Shown here: positions 753 to 23,790 of the stretch, one piece after another | Layout of the letters: each line of letters opens with the position of its first letter | Numbering within the stretch: the stretch's first letter is position 1 | NCBI GenBank assembly: GCA_030647775.1 | Contig: JAUSJC010000010.1 | Coordinates: 6,208-70,207 of the forward strand | From: Candidatus Curtissbacteria bacterium | Lineage (GTDB): Bacteria > Patescibacteriota > Microgenomatia > Curtissbacterales > GWA2-41-24 | Reading direction: 5' to 3' | DNA length: 64,000 nt | Program-made: the position numbers and the translations under genes | Notes under the pieces: generated by a model | Database searches by the model: none | The model's input: the letters and a program-made list of their open reading frames with translations, nothing else | What the model was told of the DNA's origin: nothing

Positions 753-1892
753 ATGCTCTTGAAAATTTTCCTGTCAGTAATTCTTGGTCTCTTAACTTTC
801 ACAACTGTAATTCCAAAACCGTCTCTTGCTGCAGAAAGCGATCAATGCTCCTTTGAGACAAATCCCCCGGCAGACACATGGAATTCTGAAATGGATTATA
901 AAAATATATCTATTAGAATTGGCGCCGCTTTAGCACCAAAGACTAAATATTACGTGGTATACCGAAAATACAATGACACGTTTAAAAATATACGCATTGG
1001 TGAAGGCATAGCTAACGATCAAGGAATCATTGATTCATCCGATCCATCATTTAAATCTAATTACGACAAGGGAGTTTTAAGAGACTACATGGTAGCTCCG
1101 GGAACGCACAGTATTGTCATATTTGAAGGCCCTGGTACTAATAGCAAAATAATCTGTAGCAAAACTTATAAAATTCCGTATTTTGAAACATTGAAATGCA
1201 CAATCGAGGCAAATAAAACAGATAAAAGTTATGGACCCGGCGAAAAGGTTAGTTTCAAGGGCAAATTTTCCATTGAGAAATGGGATAAAACACAAATATC
1301 TTACGCAAATAAGAACATTTCGGTTCAACTTTTAAATAAAAAAGGTGACAGAACAGGCGACTATTATGACAACAACATCACAACAGATAGTAATGGTAAT
1401 TTCGAAATAAGCGATTCGGATAAAATTAAAACTCCTGCAATCACCAATAATGATATTGGTTGGTGGAAACTTAAGGCTGACGAAAAAGATGATATAGGCA
1501 AAAATAGAAGCAAAGAGGCCTGTTATGCTGATATCTATGTCTCCAAAAACCCTAACGAGCCGGTTTCCGGTTCCCCTCCAACTGGTGACGGCGGCAAAAA
1601 CCCTTGTATTAGTGGAACATGCCAAACTGCTCTTGGCCCAATCAAAACAGACCCGGCCGAATTCATTAAAACAATTCTTGGGATTGCCATCGGCCTAGCC
1701 GGCGGTATTGCCTTAATCTTTATGGTCATTGGCGCAATCAGAGTATTAATCTCTTCCGGCGACCAGCAAAAACTGACCGGCGGTAAAGACATGATCGTCG
1801 CCGCTGTTTCCGGTCTTCTGTTTTTGATTCTTTCCGTCCTTATATTAAGATTTATTGGAACAGGCCTCCTAGGAGGAGTCCCGGGACTTTAA
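753..1892 (+). CDS. Secreted protein with a large N-terminal extracellular domain fused to a C-terminal VirB2/TrbC-like pilin module (two hydrophobic helices around an 'SSGDQQKLTGGKD' loop).
   Basis: N-terminal signal peptide (MLLKIFLSVILGLLTFTTVIPKPSLAAE). The C-terminal ~90 aa share the TM-loop-TM architecture and 'ISSGD' loop of the five downstream pilin paralogs. Confidence 0.6.
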   Translation: MLLKIFLSVILGLLTFTTVIPKPSLAAESDQCSFETNPPADTWNSEMDYKNISIRIGAALAPKTKYYVVYRKYNDTFKNIRIGEGIANDQGIIDSSDPSFKSNYDKGVLRDYMVAPGTHSIVIFEGPGTNSKIICSKTYKIPYFETLKCTIEANKTDKSYGPGEKVSFKGKFSIEKWDKTQISYANKNISVQLLNKKGDRTGDYYDNNITTDSNGNFEISDSDKIKTPAITNNDIGWWKLKADEKDDIGKNRSKEACYADIYVSKNPNEPVSGSPPTGDGGKNPCISGTCQTALGPIKTDPAEFIKTILGIAIGLAGGIALIFMVIGAIRVLISSGDQQKLTGGKDMIVAAVSGLLFLILSVLILRFIGTGLLGGVPGL

Positions 1893-1893
1893 T

Positions 1894-2247
1894 ATGATCA
1901 ATTTTCAGCTTATTCCAAACGTTTATGCCGCCTGCGAAAGCTTTTCGAAGTGTCTCGAAGGAATTACAGTGCCAGGCTTAAAACCAGAGTTCAAGTCCGA
2001 AGGTCTTGTCGGTCAGCTCATCAGCACAATTCTCCCCATTGCCCTTGGCATCGGCGGCATGCTGACGGTTGTTTTTATAATTATCTCCGGCATCCAGTTT
2101 ATAACTTCCGGCGGCGATCCCAAAGGCGCGGCGTCCGCCAAAGACAGGCTCGTTTACGCCGTTATCGGCTTTATCGTCCTAATACTTGCCTACGCCGCTT
2201 TGCAAATTATAAGTGGGGTATTTTTAGGCAAAATCGGTATAGTTTAA
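1894..2247 (+). CDS. VirB2/TrbC-like T4SS pilin (117 aa).
   Basis: Signal-like N-terminus followed by TM1, an 'ITSGGDPKGAASAKDR' loop and TM2. Tightly packed with neighbours (stop and start 1 nt apart). Confidence 0.6.
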   Translation: MINFQLIPNVYAACESFSKCLEGITVPGLKPEFKSEGLVGQLISTILPIALGIGGMLTVVFIIISGIQFITSGGDPKGAASAKDRLVYAVIGFIVLILAYAALQIISGVFLGKIGIV

Positions 2248-2248
2248 A

Positions 2249-2818
2249 ATGAAGAATTTAATATTTATTATTTTTGCCGCTTTTTTGTTATCACTGTTTT
2301 TACCTGCAAGTTCCTTTGCCGATCAATGTCCTGCCGGATACAAACCAGATGCAGTAGATCTAGAAGGCATAAACACTTCTGTCTGCTCAAAAGATATACC
2401 TCCACCTTGCGATCCGGCCAAAGGAGAAGAAGATTTTTCGTTTACCGGAAGGAACATTTGTGTCGTCTCAACTATTAGCGGCCCGCCTGCACCTGCACCA
2501 CCAGGTCAACCCACCCAAGGCTCAACCAACTCCTTTGATATAAAAACAATCTTCCAACCTGCTAATCTCTTTGGCGATTTCGGCAACCTTTTAAGTTCCA
2601 TCGTCTCAATCCTTATTAGTGCTTCCTTCATAATCACCATTTTCTTTATCATCACAGGCGGCATTAAAATCGTTACCGCTTCCGGCGATATGAAAAAAAT
2701 CCAGGCGGCCCAAGGGACAATCACCTATGCTATTATTGGTTTAGTCGTAACTGTACTGGCTTTTGTCATTTTACAAGTCGTCCAGTACTTTTTCGGCGCC
2801 AATGTCGGAATTCTTTAA
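2249..2818 (+). CDS. VirB2/TrbC-like pilin paralog with an extended Pro-rich N-terminal region (189 aa).
   Basis: Signal peptide. The C-terminal 'ITGGIKIVTASGDMKKIQAAQGTITYAIIGLVV' helix-loop-helix matches its neighbours. Confidence 0.55.
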   Translation: MKNLIFIIFAAFLLSLFLPASSFADQCPAGYKPDAVDLEGINTSVCSKDIPPPCDPAKGEEDFSFTGRNICVVSTISGPPAPAPPGQPTQGSTNSFDIKTIFQPANLFGDFGNLLSSIVSILISASFIITIFFIITGGIKIVTASGDMKKIQAAQGTITYAIIGLVVTVLAFVILQVVQYFFGANVGIL

Positions 2819-3226
2819 ATGAAAAAGTCCGCAATCATTTTTGTTTCACTTTTCACTTTGACTTTGACTCTCAAATCTCCCGCCTTTGCTCAACTCGGCA
2901 CAATCAAACCGCCGGCAGACTTTAAAATCCCAACAGCCGACGCCAATCCTTCCGTGTTTGTCGCTACACTTGTTAGAAACGGCATTACTCTTCTCCTTGT
3001 CGCTTCCTTTGTTATCGCCCTAATCTGGATAATTTTAAACGGCCTGCGTTTTATCCTTGCCCAGGGGGACGAAAAAACTGTCGCCTCTGCCTGGACCCAG
3101 ATTTACTGGACGCTAATTGGTATGGTAATTATCATGGGCTCTTTTGCTATAATCAAAATGGTTGAAACATTTTTTGGTGTGTCAGTGCTATCTGCAGACT
3201 TGAAATTGCCGCATTTACCGCAGTAA
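2819..3226 (+). CDS. VirB2/TrbC-like pilin paralog (135 aa).
   Basis: Signal peptide 'AFA'. 'ILNGLRFILAQGDEKTVASAWTQIYWTLIGMVII' TM-loop-TM. Confidence 0.55.
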   Translation: MKKSAIIFVSLFTLTLTLKSPAFAQLGTIKPPADFKIPTADANPSVFVATLVRNGITLLLVASFVIALIWIILNGLRFILAQGDEKTVASAWTQIYWTLIGMVIIMGSFAIIKMVETFFGVSVLSADLKLPHLPQ

Positions 3227-3238
3227 AGGGGGTGAGAT

Positions 3239-3697
3239 TTGATGATAAAAATAATTAAAAATACTATCCGCTATATGTCACCGGTATTATTACTGCTGAC
3301 GATTCCGGCAATCGTTATGGCTCAAGCTCCCGCAACACTTCCCGGCGGCAATACTACAACCATAACTCAAACAAGTGGATCTATTCCTATCCCGACAGCT
3401 TTATCACAAACAGGTGACATTACTGTCGTCATTGGCGGCATCATTAGGTTTATTCTTGTTACCGCCTTCGTCATTGCCTTTATCATGCTTTTGGTCGGTG
3501 GCATCCGCTGGATCCTGGCAGGAGGAGATGAAAAAGCTGTCGAAAAGGCCAGGAACACAATAACGGCCGCCCTAATTGGTTTGGTAGTTGTCCTTGTTGC
3601 TTTTGCTCTTATCAGGTTAGTAGAGCTGTTTTTTGGCGTAAATATCATTTCCGGCCTGACGGTTCCAAGAATCAGTCCATTGCAAACACCACTGTAG
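3239..3697 (+). CDS. VirB2/TrbC-like pilin paralog (152 aa).
   Basis: Strong RBS (AGGGGGTGA) upstream. 'LVGGIRWILAGGDEKAVEKARNTITAALIGLVVV' TM-loop-TM. Confidence 0.55.
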   Translation: MMIKIIKNTIRYMSPVLLLLTIPAIVMAQAPATLPGGNTTTITQTSGSIPIPTALSQTGDITVVIGGIIRFILVTAFVIAFIMLLVGGIRWILAGGDEKAVEKARNTITAALIGLVVVLVAFALIRLVELFFGVNIISGLTVPRISPLQTPL

Positions 3698-3701
3698 GCC
3701 T

Positions 3702-4049
3702 ATGCCGCTTTTTATACTGATAACACTTTTTGCAGTAGTTTTTGTTGCGCCGGTTTATGCCCAAACACCTGCACCGCCGGCCCAGATTTCGAATATTGTT
3801 AACGTCCTGGAAAATATCATCAAACTTTTAGCTCCCGCGGCCGGCATCGCCTTTTTTATCATGCTTCTTGTCGGCGGCTATAAATTTATCACTTCCGGCG
3901 GCGACCCAAAGGCGGTCGGCTCCGCCCGCTCCACTTTAACTTATGCCGTCATCGGCATCATTTTAGTCGTCGCCTCCTGGCTAATCCTCCAGTTAATTGC
4001 CACCTTCACCGGCGCCGACGTCACAACCGTTACAATTCCTACGAAATAA
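3702..4049 (+). CDS. VirB2/TrbC-like pilin paralog (115 aa).
   Basis: 'LVGGYKFITSGGDPKAVGSARSTLTYAVIGIILVV' is nearly identical in its loop to the 1894 paralog. Confidence 0.6.
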   Translation: MPLFILITLFAVVFVAPVYAQTPAPPAQISNIVNVLENIIKLLAPAAGIAFFIMLLVGGYKFITSGGDPKAVGSARSTLTYAVIGIILVVASWLILQLIATFTGADVTTVTIPTK

Positions 4050-4095
4050 TTATCGGATCTTGGTATACTGATACTAATCAGGTTTCAGTCTGCCG

Positions 4096-6969
4096 ATGAA
4101 AAAACTCGCCGCCGTTTTTCTATTAGTCATCTTCTTTGGCGCTTCGATTATTGCGACCCCTCTCCAGGCAGGCCATAATCTCCCGGGAAGCCCCTACAAA
4201 AATCCAGACCCGGTAAGGGCCCCATATGGTGACCCCCTGTTCACGACCCAACTTACCAAAGTAACTATGAAACCGATTGAGAAGAAGCTCGAGGGTTTTG
4301 GATCAAACGGTCGCTATTCGGAAGCACAACAAGTAACTCTTGCACATACTTTTGATATTCCTGTTAATTTCGCTGAAGTTTCCGCAATATTCGCCAAATC
4401 TAACTCTGATTATCTGGAAGGCAAATTCCAAGACCAGGATCACCAAAACCAAAATCTGGTCAATTCAAACTCACAAAAATTTAATGAATTCTTTGGCCCC
4501 AGCCAAAAGCTTATGCCAAAAATTATGACAGATGAACTCAAGGTTGAATATATCAACTATGTCAAAGATCACGAGAACCTTCCGGAATACAAAACTAAAA
4601 TTACCGATATCGAAGGCAAAAATTCCAAAACCGTTAGTGATCTGGTGTCCCAATTTGGGATACCAGATTCATCAAAAATCGGATCCGATACATGGGGAAA
4701 ATATTGGGCTAAAATTCCGACAGCTTTTTCTCAACCATATTCCGGGTTTATGGTATTTAGAGTTGTTGACGGTAATAAGGAAAATGACCAAATATTAAAA
4801 CAAGGCACTTGCCCTGATAACGAAAACAACGACAGTCGAATGATTGATTTTGTTCTTCCGGAATATTTCCGGACTGCGGCAACCGCCAACGAATTAAATA
4901 AAATAATTCTCCCGAAAGCAGCCCAATCCGCGCAAAAAAACTTTTTAAAGGAGGCCGTTTCCGGTGTTATTAATAACCTCTCGCCGTTCAAAGATTCCGC
5001 TATTTCTAAAACTTTAGAAAAATTCTTAAGAAGAAGCTTCAATAATCTGAACCCTGTCAAAATTGTTTATGCGCAGACATCGGAGGAAGAGTTACCCCCC
5101 GAACTCCCACCAGAACTCCTACCTTACCGGGAACAATGCCATGCGCCAACGGAATTTCAACTAAAAGATAACCCGGGTTCTGGCCCTTTTTACTCTCTCC
5201 CGGAATTATCGGTACTTATCCCTACCCACCCCCCGCAACTCAATCCCCTTGTTTTTACTAAGAGAAAAAATCCCCAGCGCACAAAAGACCCGGTAACCGG
5301 GGAGAGCTGCAACAATATAGATACTCCCCGCAAAATAGACAACGGTAAGTTTGTAAATTGTACTTTTAAAAAAATCTACGAAAGACAGCTTACAATCGCC
5401 ACGCCAGAGGACGCCCAAGCTCTCGGATGGGATTACTGCACAGAAGGTAAAGATTTGGACGGTAATCCAAGTGGTGTTTCTACATGCTACTTAACTGTAA
5501 GAGTTTACCCGATCTTTTACGTTCCATGGCTTTCGTCAATTTGGAACGATACGGTTTACTCGGACAAAAATGATCCGGCTATTATCTCCGGTGCCCAAGA
5601 AACCGGCCGGCCGGGAATCTTCGGTCTATTTACATCCCAAGGGACAGAAAACTTTATATTCCCGGATGGCAAAAATTTGCCTAGCTTAGAAGATGGCTCG
5701 CGCGATATTAAACAACGTTTTATCGGCGCGGTCGATTGCAACAAGGAATTTATCAAAAATTTTGCTCTGTTACCAAAAGCCCTGCAAGGAAATGGCACAA
5801 GCGGGTGCAATCTAAAAACAAGTAATCTGCCCGGAACCCCAGGCGCCTCGGGTACGCTTGATTTCTATGTTAAATATGGCGACACAAGCATTATTCCGAA
5901 AGACCCCGAAGCAATTAAAAAACTCGCCAACAGTTCGTGGCCGGACAACAACACCAACAGATGGGATTATGTTGTGGACAAATGCGCTTCAAATGGTATC
6001 AGCCCCGCTTTCTGCATCGCCATATGGTGGAAAGAAGGTGGTTTTGGCGGCCTGCTCCCGGGAGGAGGCCGCGCCAATAGCGAATTCGGCTGTTTCCCCG
6101 GCGGCAACACCAACCTTAAAGTCAACTTTGAAGATAGTCTAAACTGCTTTGTAAAATTTACCGCCCAGGAACACCCATACAATCCTCAAAACCCTTATGG
6201 CTCATTTTACGATTGGGTTAAATACTTTTGCGGGCCTTTTTCAAAAGGCTTGTGTACACATGACGATGACGTAAGTAAAGAACACCCAAATTTTCTGCCA
6301 GTTTTAGAAAGTGTTTATAATTCTGTTGCGCCCGGCCAAATTATTTTTGTTTCCAACCCCAACCCGGGCAATCCGGGAACCACTCCGGTTCCCATCGCCG
6401 ATGAACTCTTCAACTTCAAAACAGGTGATAAAGACTGGACCGCTCCGGAGAAAGCGGCAATGAGCCAGACCGCAGGGGTTGCGAATAAATCAGCTGTCTG
6501 GAAAACTCTTGTCTTTGCCGCGGGCAAAATCAATCTACGCAGAGGTACCACAGACCCCGAATGCCCGGATACCTGCTCTGGTTTAGCGCAAGATCCAAAC
6601 ACGCTTCTGATTCGCGACCCCTTCTTCGACCACCCGTCAAGAACTCTCTCCGGCCAAGTTTTTATTATGACTCACGAACTCGCCCATATAATTCAATACC
6701 GCAACCCGTCAATCCTCAATCAGTACAAAAGTAGTGAGGCTTACAAAGAGTTCGAAGATAAAGGCGTAATCAGAAGTTATTTCCTCTGTCCCAACGTAAA
6801 ACCCGGACACTTCTGTGCCAACGGGGTGACGGCGGAAAATGAGGACTATGGGGAAATGGCTGGAAATTATGTCGCGGATCGCGATAGCTATCTGGTGGAC
6901 TTCCCCACAGAGTACCCGCAACACTATAAATTCGCCCAAGATGTATTGTTTGGAGGAACAACATTTTAG
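4096..6969 (+). CDS. Large secreted multidomain protein (957 aa) with a C-terminal HEXXH zinc-metallopeptidase-like motif and a possible lysozyme/SLT-like motif.
   Basis: Signal peptide. 'VFIMTHELAHIIQY' (HEXXH) near the C-terminus. 'SPAFCIAIWWKEGGFGG' loosely resembles the SLT catalytic Glu region. Cys-rich. Confidence 0.6.
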   Translation: MKKLAAVFLLVIFFGASIIATPLQAGHNLPGSPYKNPDPVRAPYGDPLFTTQLTKVTMKPIEKKLEGFGSNGRYSEAQQVTLAHTFDIPVNFAEVSAIFAKSNSDYLEGKFQDQDHQNQNLVNSNSQKFNEFFGPSQKLMPKIMTDELKVEYINYVKDHENLPEYKTKITDIEGKNSKTVSDLVSQFGIPDSSKIGSDTWGKYWAKIPTAFSQPYSGFMVFRVVDGNKENDQILKQGTCPDNENNDSRMIDFVLPEYFRTAATANELNKIILPKAAQSAQKNFLKEAVSGVINNLSPFKDSAISKTLEKFLRRSFNNLNPVKIVYAQTSEEELPPELPPELLPYREQCHAPTEFQLKDNPGSGPFYSLPELSVLIPTHPPQLNPLVFTKRKNPQRTKDPVTGESCNNIDTPRKIDNGKFVNCTFKKIYERQLTIATPEDAQALGWDYCTEGKDLDGNPSGVSTCYLTVRVYPIFYVPWLSSIWNDTVYSDKNDPAIISGAQETGRPGIFGLFTSQGTENFIFPDGKNLPSLEDGSRDIKQRFIGAVDCNKEFIKNFALLPKALQGNGTSGCNLKTSNLPGTPGASGTLDFYVKYGDTSIIPKDPEAIKKLANSSWPDNNTNRWDYVVDKCASNGISPAFCIAIWWKEGGFGGLLPGGGRANSEFGCFPGGNTNLKVNFEDSLNCFVKFTAQEHPYNPQNPYGSFYDWVKYFCGPFSKGLCTHDDDVSKEHPNFLPVLESVYNSVAPGQIIFVSNPNPGNPGTTPVPIADELFNFKTGDKDWTAPEKAAMSQTAGVANKSAVWKTLVFAAGKINLRRGTTDPECPDTCSGLAQDPNTLLIRDPFFDHPSRTLSGQVFIMTHELAHIIQYRNPSILNQYKSSEAYKEFEDKGVIRSYFLCPNVKPGHFCANGVTAENEDYGEMAGNYVADRDSYLVDFPTEYPQHYKFAQDVLFGGTTF

Positions 6970-6972
6970 TTT

Positions 6973-7320
6973 ATGGACGAAACAAACCGCCTGCAAGAAT
7001 CCAGAAGAATCGCTCTCCCGCTTGCTATTGTCATTGGAATTATTCTTTTAATCTCAATGGTTATAATCTTCGGGGTCCTAAATAAGAAAAGCCCTCCGCC
7101 GGGCTCTCAAACCCGCGAAAAGGTTATTTTAAACCTGCCCCGTCTTACTGCCGACTATTCGATTGTCTACGGAGAAAGAACAGACCATATTTACATCAAC
7201 CTGATTAACGAACCGTACGACCAAAACTATCAAAAGGCCATCAAATGGCTAAAGGACCAGGGCGCGGATATTGAAGAGCTAAATATCCAGGTTACTCCCG
7301 AACAGGCCCTTGACAACTAA
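6973..7320 (+). CDS. Small bitopic membrane protein, hypothetical.
   Basis: Single N-terminal TM (LPLAIVIGIILLISMVIIFGVL). Start lies 4 nt after the preceding stop. Confidence 0.45.
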   Translation: MDETNRLQESRRIALPLAIVIGIILLISMVIIFGVLNKKSPPPGSQTREKVILNLPRLTADYSIVYGERTDHIYINLINEPYDQNYQKAIKWLKDQGADIEELNIQVTPEQALDN

Positions 7321-7360
7321 CGCGCCAATTTCACGGACTTATCCCTCAAAGCAAGTAGAC

Positions 7361-7450
7361 TGTCATCCTCAACTTGATTGAGGATCAGATTCTCGCAGTT
7401 TACCCTGAAATGGATTCCCGCTTTCGCGGGAATGACAATTGAAGGGCGAG
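7361..7450. repeat. Two adjacent hairpins of the 'GTCATYC-stem-loop-stem-GAATC' REP-like family (family C), in opposite orientations.
   Basis: 'gtcaTCCTCAActtgaTTGAGGAtcagattc' and 'gattcccgctttcgcgggaatgac'. The same frame-and-loop design (loop 'cttga') recurs at 28995. Confidence 0.45.
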
Positions 7451-7701
7451 AATGACACTTGTTGTGAAAGGATAAATACCGATTTCACCATCTTGCTCCC
7501 GGTATCTCCCAATGTTAATCTAAATCTACATTCTTAAGCTCCGAAGTCTGTGACTCGCCCTTCCGTAACTTTACGTGAAGGAGGGAATTCAGACACTGTA
7601 CCGCAACCGTCATAGTCGGGTCGAAGGCTTAAGAAGTAAAAATCAGTCCTCGTGTTAAGGACATGCTTTGGCAAACCTTCTCGAGGCGAGGAGGTTTTTT
7701 G

Positions 7702-8838
7702 ATGGCCGAGCGAACCGCAGTTTTAGATAGACATATACCACCATTCGAAGGATCGCCGATCCCCGAAGCACAGCTTGGCTATAACATCCGCTTTGACCGC
7801 CAGGATTATCAAACCCTCGCATCCCAAAGGCCATATCTTTCTCCCCAAGAATTCCAAAGACGCTCCGATCAGCTAGATCTTCGAACCACACACAACCTCC
7901 AAACAATGCTTGGCGAACGTTTCACCGTCGAAATTTCCAAAGTTGAGTATCATCTTATCTCGGGGCAGCTACAAAACCCAGACCACGACGAACCGTTTTT
8001 AGAAATTATCAAACGCGGCCAAAAATTCCGCCAAGAACATGGCTCAAAAGAAATACCCCGTGAAGCGGCGGAAGCCGAAGGTTTTGCTAAGGTTCAAGAA
8101 ATACTAAATACCAGATATACAGAGCCATGCGATCCTAAAGGGCCTAACCAGATACCAGATATTAAAGTCATCGTTGTCTCCCCGCGCGGCCCGAAAGGCT
8201 CAATTTACCAGCACAATTTTTATGACGTTTACTCCCGAAGTTATGATGGCGCAATTACTATGTCCCGCTATACGTCAAAACTTTCTTACGAAGAATTTTA
8301 TCAATCTGCCCGATCAATCGACCCATTATTGAACCTATCCCAAAACCCTACCGACGCCGAATTTTTGGCAAATCCGCTAATCACCTATCAGTCTTTGGAC
8401 CAAATCCAGAAAATCTTTTGCCCACAAGAAAAAGTGATGACGCAAAAAGAATATCAAATGCTGCTCGAAACGTGCGGGTTTTTATTTACAACCTACATAA
8501 ACTGTCTTATAAATGGCTCACCGTTGGCAGAAATCCAAAAAGTCTATAACACCCTATTAAACTTTGCGGATGTTTGGCCAAATACCGTACCAATGCAAAA
8601 CACGGATCAGATTATTTCTCATTACGGAATACTACCGGTTCGCGTTGTCGCCGCCGGCTGCGGTATTCAAAGCGGCTCGGACTCACAAAATTACTCTTCC
8701 TGGTCTGTCGCCGAATTTGGCAAATGGTTTACGTGTCCTAAATGCAACTACGAAGCAACGGGCCCTGTTGGCAATACTTGCCCTGGCTGTGGATTGACAA
8801 AAGAAGAATTTGCCAAAGAATCCCTCGTTTGCGCCTAA
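7702..8838 (+). CDS. Hypothetical protein with a C-terminal zinc ribbon (CPKCN...CPGCG).
   Basis: ATG at 7702 is preceded by GAGGAGG at optimal spacing; the track's upstream start at 7663 lacks an RBS. C-terminal CxxC-x17-CxxC. Confidence 0.55.
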   Translation: MAERTAVLDRHIPPFEGSPIPEAQLGYNIRFDRQDYQTLASQRPYLSPQEFQRRSDQLDLRTTHNLQTMLGERFTVEISKVEYHLISGQLQNPDHDEPFLEIIKRGQKFRQEHGSKEIPREAAEAEGFAKVQEILNTRYTEPCDPKGPNQIPDIKVIVVSPRGPKGSIYQHNFYDVYSRSYDGAITMSRYTSKLSYEEFYQSARSIDPLLNLSQNPTDAEFLANPLITYQSLDQIQKIFCPQEKVMTQKEYQMLLETCGFLFTTYINCLINGSPLAEIQKVYNTLLNFADVWPNTVPMQNTDQIISHYGILPVRVVAAGCGIQSGSDSQNYSSWSVAEFGKWFTCPKCNYEATGPVGNTCPGCGLTKEEFAKESLVCA

Positions 8839-8880
8839 TTTGACGCCAGCCAACTTTCCCCCTAATATGGAATTAGCTGT

Positions 8881-8962
8881 CGGGTTATTGGGCTGTTGGG
8901 ACATTAGGCTATTAGGAAGAGAGCACCTACCTAATCACCCACTAACCTAAAAACCTAATCGG
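8881..8962. repeat. Imperfect palindromic intergenic element, family A (TTGGG/TTAGG half then CCTAA half).
   Basis: 'ttattgggctgttgggacattaggctattagg ... cctaatcacccactaacctaaaaacctaatc'. Related copies at 14841, 15250, 27436 and 29630. Confidence 0.45.
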
Positions 8963-8968
8963 TCTGCA

Positions 8969-10465
8969 ATGAAAACTGTCCTTATAAAAATATCTTCAAT
9001 TCTTTTTATCTTTTTGTTCCTGACAATCGCATTTACTCCTCTCGCTCAAGCTCAAACATCGAAATGCACCCCGTCTGCAGATCTCAAAAATAACACCATT
9101 GACGCTATTAACCAATGCGCCATTGAAAGCGGTGCTTTTGATGATAAAATTTTTAATCTCAACCAAATTGCCGGCACAGTCGATAGCTTAAGTACTCTAT
9201 TAACCGGCCAATCTCAACTCCACCCGGCAACAAACAGCATCACCGCAGACGCCGGAGCGCTCACGGCTTCCGGAAAACTTATTGCCAGCCTTTATTCCAT
9301 TCCTCCCGTCTCCGGAGTCCAATATTTTGCACAACAAATTCAAAAATTTAACCCTGTCCAACCAGCTTATGCCCAAACATCTGCCGGAATCGGTTTTAAC
9401 GCACTATCACCGGTTCAAGATGTCTGGGCCGCTTTCAGGAATTTCTCTTACGTCGGCTTCGTCCTTGTCTTTATCGTCATCGGTTTTATGATTATGTTTC
9501 GCTCTAAAATTTCTCCGCAGGCCGTCGCCACCATCCAAGATTCACTGCCAAGAATTGTTGTCGCCCTCATCCTTGTCACCTTCAGCTACGCTATCGTCGG
9601 GTTGATGATTGATTTAATGTTCGTCCTCTTAAACGTTACAATTAACGCTTTAGGTGCTGCTGGCCTTACAACCGCCAATGCAGAAAAAGTAACCAACTCA
9701 AATGTCTTTAGCGTTGTCATGGGTTCACAAAAAGACATTTTTGGTGCGGTATTTGAAGCCGTTTCCGGCATTATTAAAAATGTATTTGATAATAATTGGT
9801 TAACTAAAATAATCGGGGTTCTCGGAGGATCAATTTTTGGGGTCATAGCAGGAATTGCCATGCTCTTTGTGATGTTCCGAATCTTTATAATGCTTTTGAT
9901 GTCCTACATAAGTATCATCATACTGACTATATTTGCTCCTTTTATATTACTTTTCCATGCCCTGCCCGGCAATAACGGCGCTAAAGAATGGTTCAAACAA
10001 GTAGGAGCCAACGTCGCCGTTTTCCCGACAGTTGCCTTAATGTTTATTTTGGCAGGGATGTTAAGCGGTATAGCATCACTCGGAGGCACAGCTGGCAGCC
10101 AGTTTAGTTCTGGTAACGTGGGGCAATTCCCTCTCCTTTCCGGGGGATTAGGACTTACAAATATCGGCAGTCTCATTGGTTTGGGTATTTTATTCATGAC
10201 ACCCGGAGCAGCAAAGATGGTTAAAGAAAGATTGGGAGTTAAAGAGGGTGCAATCGGAGCAGGCGGAGCCATGGCCGGTGCAGCTCTTGGCGCCGGAGCC
10301 GGCGCACTTGGCAGACCATTTGGTGCCGCTATCAACCCTGTCAGGCAATCACTCTCCTATCAATATGGGGCTGGAATGGCACAAAGAATCGGCAGATTTA
10401 CTGGTAAAACCGATAAAACCTCAACACCAAGCGAAGCAGAAGTAGAAGCAACCCAACGTTCTTAA
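8969..10465 (+). CDS. Polytopic membrane protein, VirB6/TrbL-like candidate (498 aa).
   Basis: Signal peptide, ~150-aa exported domain, at least five TM segments, and a Gly/Ala-rich hydrophilic tail, as in VirB6/TrbL. Lies within the T4SS-like locus. Confidence 0.5.
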   Translation: MKTVLIKISSILFIFLFLTIAFTPLAQAQTSKCTPSADLKNNTIDAINQCAIESGAFDDKIFNLNQIAGTVDSLSTLLTGQSQLHPATNSITADAGALTASGKLIASLYSIPPVSGVQYFAQQIQKFNPVQPAYAQTSAGIGFNALSPVQDVWAAFRNFSYVGFVLVFIVIGFMIMFRSKISPQAVATIQDSLPRIVVALILVTFSYAIVGLMIDLMFVLLNVTINALGAAGLTTANAEKVTNSNVFSVVMGSQKDIFGAVFEAVSGIIKNVFDNNWLTKIIGVLGGSIFGVIAGIAMLFVMFRIFIMLLMSYISIIILTIFAPFILLFHALPGNNGAKEWFKQVGANVAVFPTVALMFILAGMLSGIASLGGTAGSQFSSGNVGQFPLLSGGLGLTNIGSLIGLGILFMTPGAAKMVKERLGVKEGAIGAGGAMAGAALGAGAGALGRPFGAAINPVRQSLSYQYGAGMAQRIGRFTGKTDKTSTPSEAEVEATQRS

Positions 10466-10473
10466 AACCGGGA

Positions 10474-13400: not shown

Positions 13401-14598
13401 GCTCTTCAACTTGGTCTGGACCCAAAGCAGCTGTTGTTGCACCGAATACTGTACCCCCTCCGGCAATTGCTGGAACAATCCGCATACCATTCTCCTCCGC
13501 CCAAGCTAACCGCTCATTCCTGCCCATCCCACCCCAAATATCCGGTGTCTCCAAACGCTTATCGACCCCTGCCCCCTTAAAAAATCTATTGATGTCACCA
13601 ACAACATCTTCGCTTTTATAAAGTGGATAATTGACAGCAACATATTTTCCACCTTCTGTTTCGTAAACTTCAGCGTTTGTATTAGGATCAATAAATCTCA
13701 ATTTAAAATCAGGATCAACCTCACCTGCAGGAAAAGCGGTCGTGTTGGATATTCCGCGACTGTTTAATAAATCCATCTTTTTGACTGGATCATCCCTGTC
13801 CCACGTATCGGGAAGTTTTACATTGACCCCTTGCGCTGTCAAGGCCGCCTCCGCAAGCTCCCTGGGCATATTCCATAGATGAGGATACGTTCCGACAATC
13901 TTCGGCCTTTCTCCGGTGGTATCTTCCTCCTTCGCTACTTTTCTTCCCCTATGTATCTCTTCCGCCTCGACGGCACCAACCACAACTCTTTTCCCAACTT
14001 TCTCCCTTGTCAAAGTCTCTTCTTCAAGATCTCTGGCTTTCTCGATCTTCAAACGGGCTAAGTCCTCTTCAACTTTTCTTTCTTTTGTTCCGGCACGGGC
14101 TTCGAAATCCTCATTCGCTGGTTCGGCAATATCCACATCCTCTTCACGCATAACCCCCTGGGCTTCAACCACAATATCGGCAGAGGACATCTTATCGACT
14201 TCTTCAAGCATATATCCCCTTTCCAAAAGAATGTCCTTAAGCCGCTTAAATTTCTCGTAAGGAACCGCAACTTGCCCATCGCCATCCCTCAACTCTGCTA
14301 GAATTTCTGCAGCCGCTTTTGCATCTTTAAACGGTAATTTTACTGGTTGTTTGTTTGGGGTTGGCTTTTCGTCCGACTTATAAGTTGCCGGTTTGGATTC
14401 TCCCCCCTGTCGACTTTTTTCTTCTTCGCTTTGCCTAGGAGATTTTTTGGCTCCCTTTTTATCGGCCTCCTTTTTGCCCTCATCTGTTCTCCTTTTCTTC
14501 TCGTTATCCAAACGGCGCTGCTCTCTTTTTTGTTCCTCGTCTCTTCCTGGGGTTTCTTCTGGCATATTCATATTATATCCAAAACTTGCTTCCGACAT
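10474..14598 (-). CDS. Giant orphan protein (~1374 aa) with a Lys/Glu/Arg-rich low-complexity N-terminus and a hydrophobic C-terminal tail. No recognisable catalytic motif.
   Basis: Single uninterrupted frame. ATG at 14598 is preceded by AAGGAAG; the track start at 14631 is a GTG. No Walker A or relaxase HxH motifs seen. Confidence 0.6.
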   Translation of the reverse strand: MSEASFGYNMNMPEETPGRDEEQKREQRRLDNEKKRRTDEGKKEADKKGAKKSPRQSEEEKSRQGGESKPATYKSDEKPTPNKQPVKLPFKDAKAAAEILAELRDGDGQVAVPYEKFKRLKDILLERGYMLEEVDKMSSADIVVEAQGVMREEDVDIAEPANEDFEARAGTKERKVEEDLARLKIEKARDLEEETLTREKVGKRVVVGAVEAEEIHRGRKVAKEEDTTGERPKIVGTYPHLWNMPRELAEAALTAQGVNVKLPDTWDRDDPVKKMDLLNSRGISNTTAFPAGEVDPDFKLRFIDPNTNAEVYETEGGKYVAVNYPLYKSEDVVGDINRFFKGAGVDKRLETPDIWGGMGRNERLAWAEENGMRIVPAIAGGGTVFGATTAALGPDQVEELHRRLGILDDMEMRGALGSSDDRPEIFRKFEDFYSDYEKRLGDMMEMRRMDYESYRDSLVDYNLLQLETLKSIQRIMADTVAFDAEFGVAKGRIMARLVKLGSTEKIIQELLVKTSLIGPLTIIQVDAVDARREVLDFQFIEARRLATVGGDGYRFVKNLGNAIETHEILAKGTPRQAILDSIVPKARRDDLKKLSKEMDEALRGRAQALGPGVRARLFNPLDIKIKELEGSLSIGNIHLPDFDYQLYEYAKSRPAVAGAEGLLEWRASTTFEGVRLNIVRESEYGIPKDWQDSMKNVQNNFRRLESGNSTQEEVSRVRQVITQISDAIPVETLTGKEKKEAMELKMKIDELRDAVIAIYSLRLTMEGHAMDPDKVLEAIAGNNLWKDDTFKIFFDRFFQDHNGDDFVSRIQKKDAAGNPIVDASGNPVYETEKFNLLDVAMKVYFERFSKERAQMNLVEGLTLVDITTDFVTVPEEIKNLFDKSAVVDRGELNRLRDEIKGYVKKKIGVGASDDAINEYWAKPSNAEKVVLDWYRETTLLGAHGYKETDPDYHYLRTRKKDLLDALKTRLGGMGLSGDKIDEFLQAGLLDQVINNGYNVTWTLGGFSDYDGIRIWDRDKKKGEWFKDDNGRSRKKLGAFVFNNYSDVWFGRMVDHYGEFLQNEVRGRPRDANYILTKHMLGRRRGILGNNRLLIKLINDKLRMDDDVDAGIANKLVVARPGIPSRRFANVVADRMKNIDNGRKLDIGKWNGGKSLDNNWEGGDSNDRGWVRGVALEELVDDGELTFQNISWSEVFSNEKTNIIKYNMGDWWTDRKETKKYFAADACQTYLNSPDTKTFMGINNRKMFYSTREIRMHPWMKLLVPMHQEMGKHWKDWWGREYNMPSAEIEQILDVSAATNRLDHKDAERMKEKYLKLAGIPGIVPIRTLKEYLEMIRVMGSELKKPSNLMPFFLVFLWALFKGVFSQSSAQVSGK

Positions 14599-14840
14599 AC
14601 AATCTTCCTTTCTATCGCCAATTATAATCACCTACCCTATAGTTGCTTGACTTTAACCTGACAGCCAATCTGACAATTTTGTCAGACGCTAAAAGCTAAA
14701 CGACAAACGACTAAGACAAGATAAAAATCAGTATTAATTTTCATGGTCAGTGTGAAAATCTGGGCCTATTTTGAGGCTAGATATTTCCACTTCTCTGCTC
14801 TTGTTTCATATGTTATGGTAACTTTGGTGACAAAGTTACC

Positions 14841-14913
14841 AGGCTATTGGGTACTTAGGTAATTAGGTTATTGGGAGACTAACCAAACAACCCAAAGACC
14901 TAAAAGCCTAATC
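14841..14913. repeat. Family A palindromic element immediately upstream of the four-helix-bundle gene.
   Basis: 'ggctattgggtacttaggtaattaggttattggg agact aaccaaacaacccaaagacctaaaagcctaatcgcc'. Confidence 0.45.
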
Positions 14914-14925
14914 GCCATTTCAAAA

Positions 14926-16826: not shown

Positions 16827-17803
16827 AAATCATGTCACAAACTCCTAAAACTAAAGCTTCAACCCAACAGCACCTTGATGTCGAAGATATCACCGAAGAC
16901 TTGGTCATTTTAAAAACCGGCTGGGTGGCCATGGTCATGTCGACAACTGCCATCAATTTCGACCTTCTTTCTGAAGCCGAACAAGACGCTACAATCTATG
17001 CTTTCGGCGCCTTTTTGAATTCGCTCACTTTCCCGCTTGAAGTATTAATTAGAAGTAAAAAAGCCGACATTACCTCTTACTTCCAAAGCCTTGAGGAAGC
17101 CCAGCGCATTCAGCCTAACCCTGATCTTAAAAGGCAAATCCAAAAATATCAGGAGTTTATTCAGGCAACCGTCCAGCAAAAAACAGTTTTGGATAAAAGG
17201 TTCTATTTAATCATTAATTATTCCCCGCTTGGGCCCGAGTTTAAAGGCTTCGGCAAAAATAGCCAAAACCCAAAGAGTAAGGCCCAGCTTATCCAAACTG
17301 CCAAAAGCGCTCTTTCCCCGAAGCGCGACCATGTTATCAAACAAACCGCCAGGCTTGGTATTAATACCCGCCAGCTCATGTCGCAGGAATTGATCGAACT
17401 TTTTTATGATATTTATAACCCGGCCCCAACCGGCACTCAAAGGGTTATTTTGGATGCCGCCTCGTACACTACCCCGCTGGTAGAACCGGCAATCGCCAAC
17501 CCCACGCCGGCATCAGGGCCGGCTGTCGAACAGGAACTTACCAATATTAATAGACCGCAAGCAGGTGAAATAGTAACTCAGCAGGAAACAAATCTGCGAC
17601 CCGTACCGCCAGCCTCGACGCCCGCTTCGACGCGAGGCGAGCTAGGCGGGTCAGCCTCGGCTCAAGGCGGGCCGCCTCCGACGCAGGCTCCACCTGTACC
17701 CCAGCCGGCACAATATGTCACCGCTGCACCGACCCAAGCCGAGCCGCAAGCCGTGGCCCCAAACCCTAACCCAATTCAGGAAACTGGAGGTAACAACCAA
17801 TGA
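16823..17803 (+). CDS. Hypothetical T4SS-associated protein with a Pro/Ala-rich C-terminus, translationally coupled to virB4.
   Basis: ATGA overlaps at both ends. No TM segment. Sits between the PrgI-like gene and virB4. Confidence 0.5.
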   Translation: MKIMSQTPKTKASTQQHLDVEDITEDLVILKTGWVAMVMSTTAINFDLLSEAEQDATIYAFGAFLNSLTFPLEVLIRSKKADITSYFQSLEEAQRIQPNPDLKRQIQKYQEFIQATVQQKTVLDKRFYLIINYSPLGPEFKGFGKNSQNPKSKAQLIQTAKSALSPKRDHVIKQTARLGINTRQLMSQELIELFYDIYNPAPTGTQRVILDAASYTTPLVEPAIANPTPASGPAVEQELTNINRPQAGEIVTQQETNLRPVPPASTPASTRGELGGSASAQGGPPPTQAPPVPQPAQYVTAAPTQAEPQAVAPNPNPIQETGGNNQ

Positions 17804-19620
17804 AGTTTTTCCCTGATATCTTTGGTAAAAAACCGCAAGCCGCCGCCAATCTTTCCGATCAGGAAAGCGGCTGGGCCCAAACGCTGGCAACCGGATCGGT
17901 TTCAGTCCAGGATATCATCGCCCCTCCGGCCATAGAAGTTGATTTCGATTTCATTAAAATCGGCGCCTATTATTACCGCACCCTTTTTGTCATCGGCTAC
18001 CCCCGGTTTGTCGAGGCAAACTGGCTCTCCCCCTTAATTAACTTTGAGCACACATTGGAAATTGCTCTCTACTCTTATCCGGTCGAGGCCAAAGGCGTCC
18101 TTGACGACTTAAAGCGCAAAATGACCGAAATGGAGGCAACCATTGCTACCGATATCCAGCACGGGCACCTAATCGACCCGGCTGTCCAGGCTGCGCTAGA
18201 AGATGCCCAGATGCTTCAGGAAGAACTGGTCAAAGGCGCCGAAAGGTTCTTTCAGTTTGGCCTTTATGTCACTGTCCCGGCACAATCCAAAGAAGAACTC
18301 GATGAAGTCACCAAGCAAGTCGAATCAACGCTTGGCTCCCTGCTTCTTGTCCCAAAACACGCCTCACTGCAGCAGGAAGATGCTTTTAAAACCACCCTCC
18401 CGCAAGGTACCGACCACATTTATATCACCAGGAATATGGATACCACTTCCCTGGCCACAACTTTCCCTTTTGTCTCCTCATCGCTAACCTCCAATTCCGG
18501 CATCATGTACGGCATCAATGAGCATAACGGCTCATTGGTAATTTTCGACCGTTTTAGCCAGGAAAACGCCAATTCCGTAATCTTTGCCAAATCCGGCGCC
18601 GGCAAATCTTATCTGGTTAAACTCGAAGCCCTCCGTTCCCTCATGTTTGGCACCGAAGTCATTGTCATCGACCCCGAAGAAGAATATAAAACCCTTTGCC
18701 AGGCAATCGGCGGCGAGTTAATCAGCTTTAACTTCTCATCTGAAGCCAAAATCAACCCTTTCGACCTTTCCGGAATCTATGAAGAAGGCGAAAACGAACT
18801 GGGCTTAAAAATCCTTTCCCTCCACGGGCTTTTTAAAATAATCATGGGCAATCTTACCCCTTCGGAAGATGCCCTCCTTGACCGTGCGCTGGTTGCCACC
18901 TATAAAGCCAAAGGCATCACCCCCGATCCGGCTACCCAGCAAAACGAACCGCCTTTGATGGAAGACCTCTATAAAGTTTTAATTGGTATGGAAGAGTCAA
19001 CCGCCAAGGGCCTTGCCGACAGGATTGAAAGATTCGTTAAGGGCTCACTAGTTGGCATCTTCAACCAGCAAAGCAATATCGATATCAAAAATACCTTCAC
19101 CGTTTTTTCGATTAAAGACCTGGAAAACGAACTTCGCCCCATTGCTATGTACTTAATTTTGGATTTCATCTGGACCAAGGTCAAAAATGATATCAGGAAA
19201 CGGCTTCTAATAGTCGACGAGGCCTGGTACTTAATGCAGTATCCGGACAGCGCTTCATTTATGTACGGCATCGCCAAACGCGCCAGAAAGTATTACCTTG
19301 GCTTAACGACAATCACCCAGGATGTCGAAGATTTTCTAACCACCGACTACGGCCGCGCTATCGTTACCAACTCAAGTATCCAGATTCTTCTTAAACAATC
19401 CCCGGCGGCCATCGACCAGGTCGCCGATACTTTTTACCTTTCCGAGGGCGAAAAGCATCTTCTCCTTTCTGCCGATATTGGGGAAGGCATCTTTTTTGCC
19501 GGCCCCAACCATGTTGCCATCAGGATTGTGGCTTCAGACGATGAGCATGCCCTCGTAACCACTAATCCAAAGGAACTCCAGGAGATGGCCAAAGCCCAAG
19601 AACTCCAAAAGCAATTTTAA
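17800..19620 (+). CDS. virB4: VirB4/TrbE-family T4SS ATPase (606 aa, short Gram-positive/CPR type).
   Basis: Walker A 'IFAKSGAGKSYLV' and Walker B 'RLLIVDEAWYLM'. N-terminal 'IEVDFDFIKIGAYYYRTLFVIGYPRFVEANWL' resembles the VirB4 N-domain. Confidence 0.8.
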   Translation: MKFFPDIFGKKPQAAANLSDQESGWAQTLATGSVSVQDIIAPPAIEVDFDFIKIGAYYYRTLFVIGYPRFVEANWLSPLINFEHTLEIALYSYPVEAKGVLDDLKRKMTEMEATIATDIQHGHLIDPAVQAALEDAQMLQEELVKGAERFFQFGLYVTVPAQSKEELDEVTKQVESTLGSLLLVPKHASLQQEDAFKTTLPQGTDHIYITRNMDTTSLATTFPFVSSSLTSNSGIMYGINEHNGSLVIFDRFSQENANSVIFAKSGAGKSYLVKLEALRSLMFGTEVIVIDPEEEYKTLCQAIGGELISFNFSSEAKINPFDLSGIYEEGENELGLKILSLHGLFKIIMGNLTPSEDALLDRALVATYKAKGITPDPATQQNEPPLMEDLYKVLIGMEESTAKGLADRIERFVKGSLVGIFNQQSNIDIKNTFTVFSIKDLENELRPIAMYLILDFIWTKVKNDIRKRLLIVDEAWYLMQYPDSASFMYGIAKRARKYYLGLTTITQDVEDFLTTDYGRAIVTNSSIQILLKQSPAAIDQVADTFYLSEGEKHLLLSADIGEGIFFAGPNHVAIRIVASDDEHALVTTNPKELQEMAKAQELQKQF

Positions 19621-19624: not shown

Positions 19625-19715
19625 GCTAAACGCTAATCGACTAAAGACTAACGCAAACATTAACCCTTCGTCGTTAGTCGTTCGCCTGCCTTGCCGGCAG
19701 GCAGGTCGTTCGTCA
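19625..19715. repeat. Family B element: GACTAAAGACTAACG arms around a 'gcctgccttgccggcaggcagg' palindrome.
   Basis: A 36-nt core is identical to 40943-40978. Related arms at 53644 and 57843. Confidence 0.5.
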
Positions 19716-22734: not shown

Positions 22735-23790
22735 ATGAAATTATCAGATTTTTCGCCAACACCTAAAAAGATTCTGGCTACCTTGGCCACTATTCTGCTT
22801 CTCATTGGCCTGACCATTCTAATATTTTTAAGATACCAGTCCTCCAATAAAGAGACTCCTCCGGTAGTTATCCCCGGGCCGACTATCGTTCTGCCGCCGG
22901 ATGTTGCCAAACCGAAAATCGCCAACATTTCTTTTCAGTTTAAAGACCCCAGCCTTCCGGATAAGGTTAACGTCTACAAAGTGAACTACACGCTTGATGG
23001 CAAATTTGCAAATCAAGTTGCCGCAACTTTTTCGTTTCAAAATCAGCCAGAAACAACCAATGACGCACAAGGGAATACCACCATGACTTGGGAAAACCCC
23101 GGCGGCAGTGAAAGATTAAGTATTACTCTCGAAAACGGACTCGTACAGTACACTGCTTCTCCCACACATGGCAAGCCAGACATCGGCCAGCCGCCGCTGC
23201 CAACCATTACCTCAAAGGAACAAGCGGCTATTTTAGCCAACAGTTTTTTAAGAAACCATAACTTGCTTGCTCCGGGCCTATCCCCATCGACAGTTCTCCC
23301 GTTCATATCTTCAGAGGGTAAATACATAAATCTGGTAGCTGACCTGTCCAAGGCAAAACTTTTTCAGGTTAATTTTTCTGCCACCCTGGGGAACAATAGG
23401 ATTTACTACCAATTTGCAAACGACGCACCTGTTAGCGTCTGGCTTGATAATTTCCAATCGCCAACCAAAGTTGTCTACCAATACCCAATCCCGCTTACCG
23501 AAAAACCAACACAGAAACCAATTATTACAATCGATCAAGCAAAAAGTAAATTAGAACAAGGGGAAGGAACAATTGTCAATTTCGAACCAGGAATCCCCGA
23601 CCCGAAAAGCACGGAAGCAATGCAGTCGGCAACTTTAACAGACGCCCAGCTAGCCTACTTTGATGATAGTAGATCCGGTTTTCTCCAGCCGATTTTGGTA
23701 TTTAAGGGCGAAGCAATCTATCCAAAAGCAGGTAAACTACCAATTACTATTTATTTGCCAGCGCAGACAACTCAACCAACAAATAACTAA
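22735..23790 (+). CDS. Membrane-anchored exported protein, hypothetical; last gene of the plus-strand block.
   Basis: N-terminal TM (ILATLATILLLIGLTILIFL). Start lies 1 nt after the preceding stop. Confidence 0.5.
   Translation: MKLSDFSPTPKKILATLATILLLIGLTILIFLRYQSSNKETPPVVIPGPTIVLPPDVAKPKIANISFQFKDPSLPDKVNVYKVNYTLDGKFANQVAATFSFQNQPETTNDAQGNTTMTWENPGGSERLSITLENGLVQYTASPTHGKPDIGQPPLPTITSKEQAAILANSFLRNHNLLAPGLSPSTVLPFISSEGKYINLVADLSKAKLFQVNFSATLGNNRIYYQFANDAPVSVWLDNFQSPTKVVYQYPIPLTEKPTQKPIITIDQAKSKLEQGEGTIVNFEPGIPDPKSTEAMQSATLTDAQLAYFDDSRSGFLQPILVFKGEAIYPKAGKLPITIYLPAQTTQPTNN

Follow-up and report, generated by a model that had tools for sequence, protein, structure and literature searches.

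A probable Patescibacteria-clade type IV secretion system beside dnaA in Candidatus Curtissbacteria, with a tightly linked family of giant proteins

The window analyzed here is a stretch of 64,000 nucleotides from a Candidatus Curtissbacteria bacterium (class Microgenomatia; GenBank assembly GCA_030647775.1, contig JAUSJC010000010.1, positions 6,208 to 70,207), in which a block at 753-23790 with the components of a type IV secretion system (T4SS) comprises 16 plus-strand genes and one large minus-strand gene, all of the open reading frames (ORFs) being present at the expected coordinates (Table 1). Elsewhere, the window carries housekeeping genes, namely dnaN, dnaA, rpmH, yidC and those for LeuRS, TsaD, CTP synthase, GroEL and L25. 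For comparison, we obtained 387 tblastn matches in GTDB genomes and kept 80 loci, and counts are given below per 81 loci. By record title, the kept loci come nearly all from Patescibacteria and mostly from Microgenomatia, with a few titles evidently belonging to mislabelled metagenome-assembled genomes; their VirB4 proteins are 63-86% identical to that of the window, and the top matches, at 86%, are Curtissbacteria. An exact-sequence look-up gave no record for the VirB4 of the window, and for the 351-residue protein a 7.3-kb Logan contig. A tRNA scan and an Rfam scan of the window gave no matches, and a promoter and terminator consensus scan of positions 1-16000 stayed at chance level, so that no operon boundaries could be drawn.

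We found the motor and part of the platform of the presumed machine in three consecutive genes. The PrgI/VirB3-like protein matches PF12666 above its gathering score (32.6 bits against 27, residues 5-91) and continues through a P/Q-rich linker into a C-terminal CarboxypepD_reg-like beta-sandwich (PF13620, 28.8 bits), and its gene lies directly upstream of trsD-virB4 in 71 of the 81 loci. The 326-residue protein that follows matches TrsD (NF041427, E 9e-8) and the mycoplasma VirB4 model NF045975 (E 5e-8), in both cases significantly, though below the curated whole-protein cutoffs. As this protein covers positions 95-278 of NF045975 and the VirB4 ORF covers positions 292-890, VirB4 is split into two translationally coupled genes, the 326-residue product being a TrsD-like, detached N-terminal region of VirB4. 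A BLASTP comparison with the VirB4 of its own locus gave no similarity, the identity being taken from the NCBIfam profiles; its orthologue in the closest relative, L001, matches Pfam PF26593 (TraC-like), and a trsD-like gene precedes virB4 in 73 loci. VirB4 itself scores 388 bits against NF045971 (cutoff 325), a model of the monoderm CD1110 type, matches P-loop_TraG PF19044 (92 bits) and the Thermoanaerobacter VirB4 structure 4ag5 in the PDB (E 2e-52), and carries the sole conserved Walker A motif of the block (AKSGAGKS). Among the Curtissbacteria (L001-L015), VirB4 is 81-86% identical and DnaA 53-58% (DnaA and DnaN together range over 51-58%), which suggests that the T4SS motor is under stronger constraint than the core replication proteins or has recently been exchanged within the lineage.

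The pilins occupy the start of the block, where six consecutive proteins carry the T4SS_pilin domain PF18895 at their C-terminal end, four above the gathering score and two at about 23.5 bits. In the pilin-adhesin fusion, the match (23.5 bits, below the gathering score of 26.6) lies at residues 302-367, with transmembrane (TM) helices at 308-326 and 347-365, and this region can be aligned with the other five pilins. A signal-peptide-like N-terminus, two C-terminal TM helices and a loop of the form GG(I/Y)(R/K)..(T/L)..GD..K are common to all six, at pairwise identities of 18-40% (21-40% among the five short ones). Searches for an unrelated origin, among the Flp, type IV pilus and sortase pilin families, gave no Pfam matches in the pilins, and the LPXTG motif was likewise absent; PF18895 and TrbC being the only matches, the VirB2-like assignment stands.

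Downstream of virB4, the 998-residue wall-hydrolase fusion combines a glycine-zipper TM cluster (residues 467-616) with a Peptidase_M23 domain (PF01551, 56 bits, residues 671-764; HxH motif HLH at residue 757) and a YkuD domain scoring at the gathering score (PF03734, 23.4 bits, residues 877-979). By analogy, we infer that this M23+YkuD fusion would act as a functional VirB1 substitute. The next product, p351 (identical to NCBI protein Q7S45_02580 of a Curtissbacteria metagenome-assembled genome), is predicted to have a membrane anchor and tandem modules of PepSY/YycI type; it is not a clear VirB8. It differs from the YpeB, YycI, YycH and PepSY-domain envelope regulators in that it shares no sequence similarity with them, has three modules and is embedded in a T4SS operon; a regulatory role for it is putative. 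As a separate observation, the spacer between virB4 and the hydrolase gene contains a 49-nt repeat (19667-19715) that recurs with 94% identity at 40941-40989, upstream of the LeuRS region; it carries the palindrome GCCTGCCTTGCCGGCAGGCAGG and looks like a repetitive extragenic palindrome, a miniature inverted-repeat transposable element or a shared terminator hairpin.

Among the ORFs of 100 residues or more in the 64-kb window, none gave a Pfam match to a type IV coupling protein (T4CP), a relaxase or VirB9/10/11, and VirB4 is the sole P-loop ATPase of the block. The combination that defines a conjugative T4SS, a relaxase and T4CP linked to mating-pair genes, is absent from the window. Because PF18895 is present six times, together with PrgI, TrsD, a VirB4 above the NF045971 cutoff and M23/YkuD domains, we assign the block to the T4SSs, and with a probability of about three in four it is a chromosomal T4SS of the Patescibacteria clade, that is, monoderm conjugation machinery of the mating-pair formation class MPF_FATA that has been repurposed.

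These results bear out most of a first-pass annotation of this DNA, which had described a T4SS-like pilus locus of monoderm or candidate-phyla-radiation type with five VirB2/TrbC-like pilins and a pilin-adhesin fusion, a long PrgI-like protein, a VirB4 ATPase and an M23 cell-wall hydrolase fusion (to which we add the YkuD domain), without VirD4, relaxase or VirB9/10/11. Its view that the 326-residue protein was unassignable gives way to the TrsD and VirB4 N-terminal matches described above. The system itself is not new, as pilin arrays, the absence of a relaxase and the proximity to dnaA had already been published (PMC10633639, PMC12102498, PMC12857230).

The systems of this clade are a recognized T4SS group (2025 review, PMC12857230). 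In Saccharibacteria, Wang et al. 2023 (PMC10633639) described a T4SS, genes 0006-0019, with an essential pilin series, required for epibiotic growth, and the Southlakia system has no recognizable coupling protein or relaxase. A survey of 3,035 genomes by Quinonero-Coronel et al. 2025 (PMC12102498) placed the VirB4 proteins of Patescibacteria in one monophyletic clade within MPF_FATA and reported TrsD, PrgI/VirB3 and VirB6 components; arrays of 2-11 VirB2-like genes, especially in Microgenomatia, with pilin arrays of the present kind in Microgenomatia and Saccharimonadia; M23 or lysozyme domains instead of VirB1, an essential peptidase and lysozyme being encoded after virB4 in Southlakia; hardly any relaxases; T4CP genes mostly far from virB4; and proximity to dnaA/dnaN in Paceibacteria and Microgenomatia. 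The block shares with the clade, as represented by Southlakia epibionticum SEML1_0006-0019, the TrsD and PrgI/VirB3 genes before VirB4, divergent VirB2-like pilins in tandem (PF18895), a wall hydrolase of peptidase type encoded after virB4, the lack of a linked relaxase or T4CP and a chromosomal site beside dnaA/dnaN. Relative to the passages of these two papers used for the comparison, the opposite-strand giant gene, the genes for the zinc-ribbon, PepSY/YycI-like bitopic and 957-residue secreted proteins and the inserted 23S rRNA intervening-sequence protein (IVP) gene are extra here. Its candidate VirB6 has diverged too far to be recognized by the VirB6/TrbL profiles, which agrees with the reported scarcity of VirB6 matches in Microgenomatia.

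With the monoderm MPF_FATA systems (pCF10 Prg/Pcf, pIP501 Tra, integrative and conjugative elements (ICEs) of the CTn2/CD1110 type, mycoplasma ICEs), the block has in common a CD1110-family VirB4, PrgI, TrsD, a multi-domain membrane-anchored wall hydrolase and the lack of an outer-membrane core (VirB7/9/10). It departs from them in that no relaxase or T4CP was found in the locus, VirB2-like pilins are present that the Gram-positive systems lack, M23/YkuD replace SLT/CHAP domains, there is no clear VirB8-like (PrgL/TraM) protein, and the locus is not on a mobile element. The T4CP-less exporters Bordetella Ptl and Brucella VirB resemble it in having no coupling protein, and their signal-peptide substrates can enter from outside the membrane; by analogy, the Sec-dependent 957-residue protein could be handled in the same way. 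These exporters differ in being diderm MPF_T systems with VirB7-11, homology being limited to VirB4, VirB3 and VirB2.

Table 1. Features of the T4SS block and of the adjoining dnaA region in the window.
Feature	Position	Strand	Characteristics
Pilin-adhesin fusion, 379 aa	753..1892	+	signal peptide, ~280-aa extracellular region, C-terminal VirB2-like domain, two TM helices
Five short VirB2-like pilin paralogues	1894..4049	+	PF18895, signal peptide and two TM helices each
Pilin	1894-2247	+	PF18895 45 bits, above gathering score
Pilin	2249-2818	+	PF18895 29 bits, above gathering score
Pilin	2819-3226	+	PF18895 23.4 bits, just below gathering score; also TrbC 17.8 bits
Pilin	3239-3697	+	PF18895 35 bits, above gathering score
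Pilin	3702-4049	+	PF18895 44 bits, above gathering score
Secreted 957-aa protein	4096..6969	+	signal peptide; conserved core residues ~80-560; C-terminal HELAH
Small bitopic membrane protein, 115 aa	6973..7320	+	one TM helix at 17-35
Cytoplasmic zinc-ribbon protein, 391 aa (378 aa from ATG 7702)	7663..8838	+	C-terminal CPKC...CPGC
Polytopic membrane protein, 498 aa, candidate VirB6 analogue	8969..10465	+	signal peptide and ~5 TM helices
Giant cytoplasmic alpha-helical protein, 1385 aa from GTG	10474..14631	-	probably 1374 aa from ATG 14598
23S rRNA-IVP / Avd-like four-helix-bundle protein, 130 aa	14926..15318	+	PF05635 99.9 bits
PrgI/VirB3-like membrane protein, 502 aa	15318..16826	+	PF12666, PF13620, two TM helices
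TrsD-like protein, 326 aa	16823..17803	+	translationally coupled to virB4; NF041427, NF045975
VirB4 ATPase, 606 aa, MPF_FATA-related	17800..19620	+	NF045971, PF19044, PDB 4ag5, Walker A
Wall-hydrolase fusion, 998 aa	19738..22734	+	cytoplasmic N-terminal half, TM cluster, M23, YkuD-like domain
p351, bitopic protein, 351 aa	22735..23790	+	three extracytoplasmic alpha/beta modules, PepSY/YycI type; abuts hydrolase gene
dnaN	24177-25364	-	translation; DNA_pol3_beta domains in Logan contig gene call
dnaA	25660-27012	-	translation; convergent with T4SS block, as dnaN
dnaA-rpmH intergenic region, classical oriC position	27013..27552	.	DnaA boxes

Between the pilins and the giant gene lie four genes whose products gave little to profile searches. 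The secreted 957-residue protein contains a region with a lysozyme/SLT-like motif (AIWWKEGGFGG) and, at residue 860, its one HELAH, in a segment that is specific to this copy and absent from its homologues, and it had no match in Pfam, NCBIfam or the PDB; of the secreted HEXXH hydrolase in the first-pass annotation, the signal peptide and the motif are there and a hydrolase family is not. Homologues follow the pilin array in nine related loci, some of them with SLT-type motifs (ES...GPMQM) at the equivalent C-terminal position. In 14 related loci, family members of the 115-residue protein are encoded after genes for large secreted proteins or hydrolases. The zinc-ribbon protein, noted as such before, has its CxxC pairs at residues 358 and 373 and a weak rubrerythrin-type ribbon match (E 0.07), and its homologues are confined to Curtissbacteria-level loci, upstream of the VirB6-like gene. 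The 498-residue protein weakly matches the mycoplasma ICE membrane proteins MMCAP2_0566 (E 1e-4) and Mbov_0396 (E 4e-3), and its family stands at the equivalent position in 29 of the 81 loci; the earlier description of it as VirB6/TrbL-like fits the polytopic topology, and none of 26 family members gave a TrbL/VirB6 Pfam match, the PDB search being likewise empty. PDB sequence and profile searches with the 957-, 391-, 351- and 498-residue proteins and the giant produced no meaningful match, and a PHROG scan of the unassigned proteins yielded nothing except a match of the IVP protein to 'Avd protein of DGR' (E 2e-5; DGR, diversity-generating retroelement). The IVP gene sits between the giant gene and prgI and, because it is missing at that position in L001, it is probably an inserted passenger and not a machine part; copies occur at other places in six T4SS loci. 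As an observation apart, A/C-rich repeats with an 8-nt period (CCTAA / AACCTAAT type) at 14872-14920, 15279-15327 and 27501-27557 sit immediately upstream of three start codons, those of the IVP gene, prgI and rpmH, and might be a leader or an element of translation initiation that these genes share, or the binding site of a regulator.

The minus-strand giant is a real gene. A homologue with 68% identity stands at the equivalent position on a groundwater contig, and an exhaustive HMMER search of 1.84 billion representatives gave a family of 89 clusters, nearly all of 1000-1400 residues. As the first-pass annotation had it, the protein is unassignable: neither single sequences nor profiles found a match in Pfam, NCBIfam, PHROGs or PDB sequences, and its confident predicted structure has no PDB analogue. 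Its N-terminus is K/E-rich and disordered and lacks a signal peptide, its C-terminus is a conserved amphipathic helix ('...FLWxLFKGxFxQSQAQLAGK'), and D/E/R/N/W residues in the C-terminal half are invariant across the family. A candidate Walker A sequence (GKWNGGKS) was dismissed, as it falls outside the columns of the family that are invariant or at least 90% conserved. Every Curtissbacteria-level locus with enough flank contains the giant, whose gene points toward the VirB6-like gene and away from prgI; in two of them, L003 and L013, it still adjoins the VirB6-like gene although the prgI-virB4 segment is rearranged, and all five loci retrieved with the giant as a metagenome query had the same T4SS neighbors. 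Relative to the literature, this tightly linked protein family, without resemblance to a known family or fold, is what is new at the locus. The VirB6-like and giant genes converge at 10463-10476 with 8 nt between their stop codons, which leaves no room for a terminator, so that their transcripts must overlap or collide.

In some distant Microgenomatia loci, a large opposite-strand ORF without a signal peptide and with a similar C-terminal tail fills the equivalent slot (three examples), which hints at a general 'cargo slot'. A single universal giant family was tried and rejected, the best result of iterated hidden Markov model searches and hhalign being one of these three at a probability of 40% (E 3e-4), over the C-terminus only; some opposite-strand ORFs of distant loci clearly encode something else, such as an M23-like protein. 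Divergence is fast in the giant, the hydrolase and p351, with 21-35% identity over the comparisons in which VirB4 is highly conserved, and a conserved motor with such fast-diverging parts fits an essential machine with host-facing components. We regard it as a tentative, rather doubtful proposal that the giant, as a new family restricted to Curtissbacteria and close relatives, is a T4SS part, either an effector or a membrane-docked platform replacing VirD4 in substrate recruitment; a host-facing or substrate role fits its confidently predicted architecture without PDB analogue, invariant residues, tail, strict placement and fast divergence.

A working scheme for the machine can be drawn from homology. 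Six Sec-exported VirB2-like pilins, one of them fused to an adhesin-like domain, would enter the membrane through their two TM helices, and the split VirB4, composed of the TrsD-like N-domain and the motor, would dock on the PrgI/VirB3-like and polytopic VirB6-like proteins, extract the pilins and build a short pilus or conduit. The membrane-anchored M23+YkuD hydrolase would cut peptidoglycan, be it the cell's own, the host's or both, with p351 as its putative partner by analogy with YpeB-SleB and PepSY propeptides, and the secreted 957-residue protein with its lysozyme motif probably joins in the cutting of the wall. The machine may thereby mediate contact-dependent exchange with a host bacterium, and, as no relaxase or coupling protein is linked, the candidate cargo is probably protein and not conjugative DNA. 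The giant would be the lineage-specific linked partner, acting at the membrane, as its conserved amphipathic tail suggests, either as a platform for docking or recruitment or as a substrate.

Beyond p351, the block faces dnaN, which lies 4.6 kb downstream of virB4, and dnaA, on the far side of which rpmH (start at 27553), rnpA, yidD and yidC follow. Of the DnaA boxes in the dnaA-rpmH spacer, the one at 27419-27427 is perfect and the one at 27271 has a single mismatch; separately, the part of the spacer directly upstream of dnaA (27040-27200) is GC-rich with many short inverted repeats and gave no Rfam match at a permissive threshold. The order prgI-trsD-virB4 on the plus strand followed by dnaN and dnaA on the minus strand recurs in about 56 of the 81 loci (dnaN/dnaA neighbor virB4 in 56-57) and spans Curtiss-, Shapiro-, Woese-, Gottesman-, Chisholm- and Amesbacteria as well as WWE3. 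Across the block, the plus strand is C-rich (GC skew -0.16), and the skew at third codon positions (GC3), read on the plus strand from 1 to ~45 kb, is about -0.3 whichever way the genes point, the strand asymmetry weakening only beyond ~45 kb. Upon examining the 25 relatives with at least 3 kb beyond dnaA, we observed a negative skew on the T4SS side (mean -0.11) and a higher one beyond dnaA in all 25, with a change of sign from negative to positive in 20 (L017-L078). Hence, in the class Microgenomatia, the skew switches at dnaA, and the adjoining T4SS genes run head-on. In the block of the window, the plus strand has the composition of a lagging strand and not of a leading one, which fits the earlier claim of a head-on orientation.

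The same annotation had read this orientation as the sign of a horizontally acquired or inverted island. A mobile island, an ICE or its remnant, that was acquired or recently inverted beside the origin would agree with the conjugative ancestry of the T4SS genes, with their orientation opposed to dnaA-dnaN and with the presence of mobile DNA elsewhere in the window, a low-GC reverse transcriptase/HNH element, and is nevertheless very improbable, given that the order and orientation are common to so many Microgenomatia lineages and that the block resembles housekeeping genes in codon usage (r 0.82-0.87). Codon usage differs strongly between the strands, the giant correlating with other minus-strand genes at r 0.70. 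A recent inversion would have inverted the skew, whereas block and flanks have the same GC3 skew; a genuine inversion can be seen in L003 and L013, where prgI-trsD-virB4 is inverted relative to the segment with the pilins, VirB6-like gene and giant, and the virB4 strand has a GC skew of +0.12 to +0.14, unlike in the window. Window scans found no integrase, relaxase, T4CP or flanking tRNA, and vertical inheritance of VirB4 within classes is reported in the survey (PMC12102498). As the order is conserved, the codon usage native and the block skew equal to that of the flanks, we conclude that the locus is an old, vertically kept, head-on neighbor of dnaN-dnaA, recent acquisition or inversion not being supported.

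Other functions than exchange with a host were weighed on the same gene content. The six divergent pilin paralogues, one with an adhesin-like domain, and the lack of a coupling protein in the window could point to an adhesive, antigenically variable pilus for host attachment only, without translocation, and in other T4SSs VirB4 alone is sufficient for pilus biogenesis. We consider such a pilus improbable, since the channel parts (PrgI, the VirB6-like protein) are kept together with two large wall hydrolases, a cytoplasmic giant is strictly linked to the cluster, and Patescibacteria already adhere via type IV pili (PMC12857230). Still less probable is a system for DNA import or competence, comparable to ComB of H. 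pylori or the archaeal Ced, that feeds or transforms the cell. The cells are unable to make nucleotides, the CedB and CedD models give weak scores with VirB4 (46 and 26 bits, well short of the cutoffs), and loci of the ABY1 class adjoin comF, recG and radA in the survey (PMC12102498); yet the CedB/CedD likeness is generic VirB4 similarity, no competence or recombination genes were found adjoining the present locus, and in Southlakia comEC is dispensable and the T4SS essential, so that the essential role is not through transformation (PMC12857230).

Several points weigh against a repurposed Patescibacteria-clade T4SS engaged in exchange with a host, or against parts of it. The steps of the scheme are taken from homology, Microgenomatia systems being known from genes alone. 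The lysozyme and HEXXH activities of the 957-residue protein are guesses at the level of motifs, the VirB6 assignment is tentative, drawn from topology and matches at E 1e-4, the role of p351 follows structural analogy with a model of pLDDT (predicted local distance difference test) 74, and that of the giant is a pure inference from linkage. In Patescibacteria, the gene of a VirD4-like T4CP commonly lies at a distance from virB4 (PMC12102498), and one could be present beyond the window. Moreover, the GC skew of the window does not change sign at dnaA (-0.156 to its left, -0.132 to its right up to 45 kb), so that a position next to oriC is argued from gene order and the single perfect DnaA box; the first-pass placement beside the replication origin is consistent with both of these and lacks the skew flip. 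Close Curtissbacteria are mostly also without a flip to the right of dnaA (~2 kb available), which suggests a displaced origin or a rearrangement on that side in Curtissbacteria.

Two further features lie outside the block. The region 60664-62869 has a low GC content (0.32-0.36 against ~0.45 elsewhere) and a codon usage unlike the rest of the window (r 0.27-0.45), and the proteins encoded there are an HNH endonuclease-like one (60664-61365) and a reverse transcriptase (61493-62869; RVT_1, 51 bits); it is probably a mobile retroelement, with no group II intron RNA match in Rfam. A DGR joining this distant reverse transcriptase to the Avd-like gene of the block was considered, and a search for a DGR-type template/variable repeat pair gave none. 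A direct repeat of 83 nt, 86% identical, links the 3' end of an O-antigen-ligase-like gene (30819-30901) with 31748-31830, upstream of a polysaccharide-synthesis gene at 31865, and is probably the remnant of a partial gene duplication.

To our knowledge, the Patescibacteria T4SS is the only T4SS known to be essential for its owner's life, and the present locus is a well-resolved Microgenomatia example of it that adds no new principle. Within it, the giant offers a lead as a strictly T4SS-linked family that may supply a substrate or take the place of the coupling protein, and p351, which occupies the place expected for VirB8, could as a conserved PepSY/YycI-like partner of the hydrolase explain how the lytic enzyme is restrained. 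A motor more conserved than DnaA, combined with fast-evolving surface and accessory parts, is the signature expected of a host-interaction machine. Overall, the class-wide head-on placement of the T4SS beside dnaA is relevant to gene dosage and to replication-transcription conflicts in these genomes.

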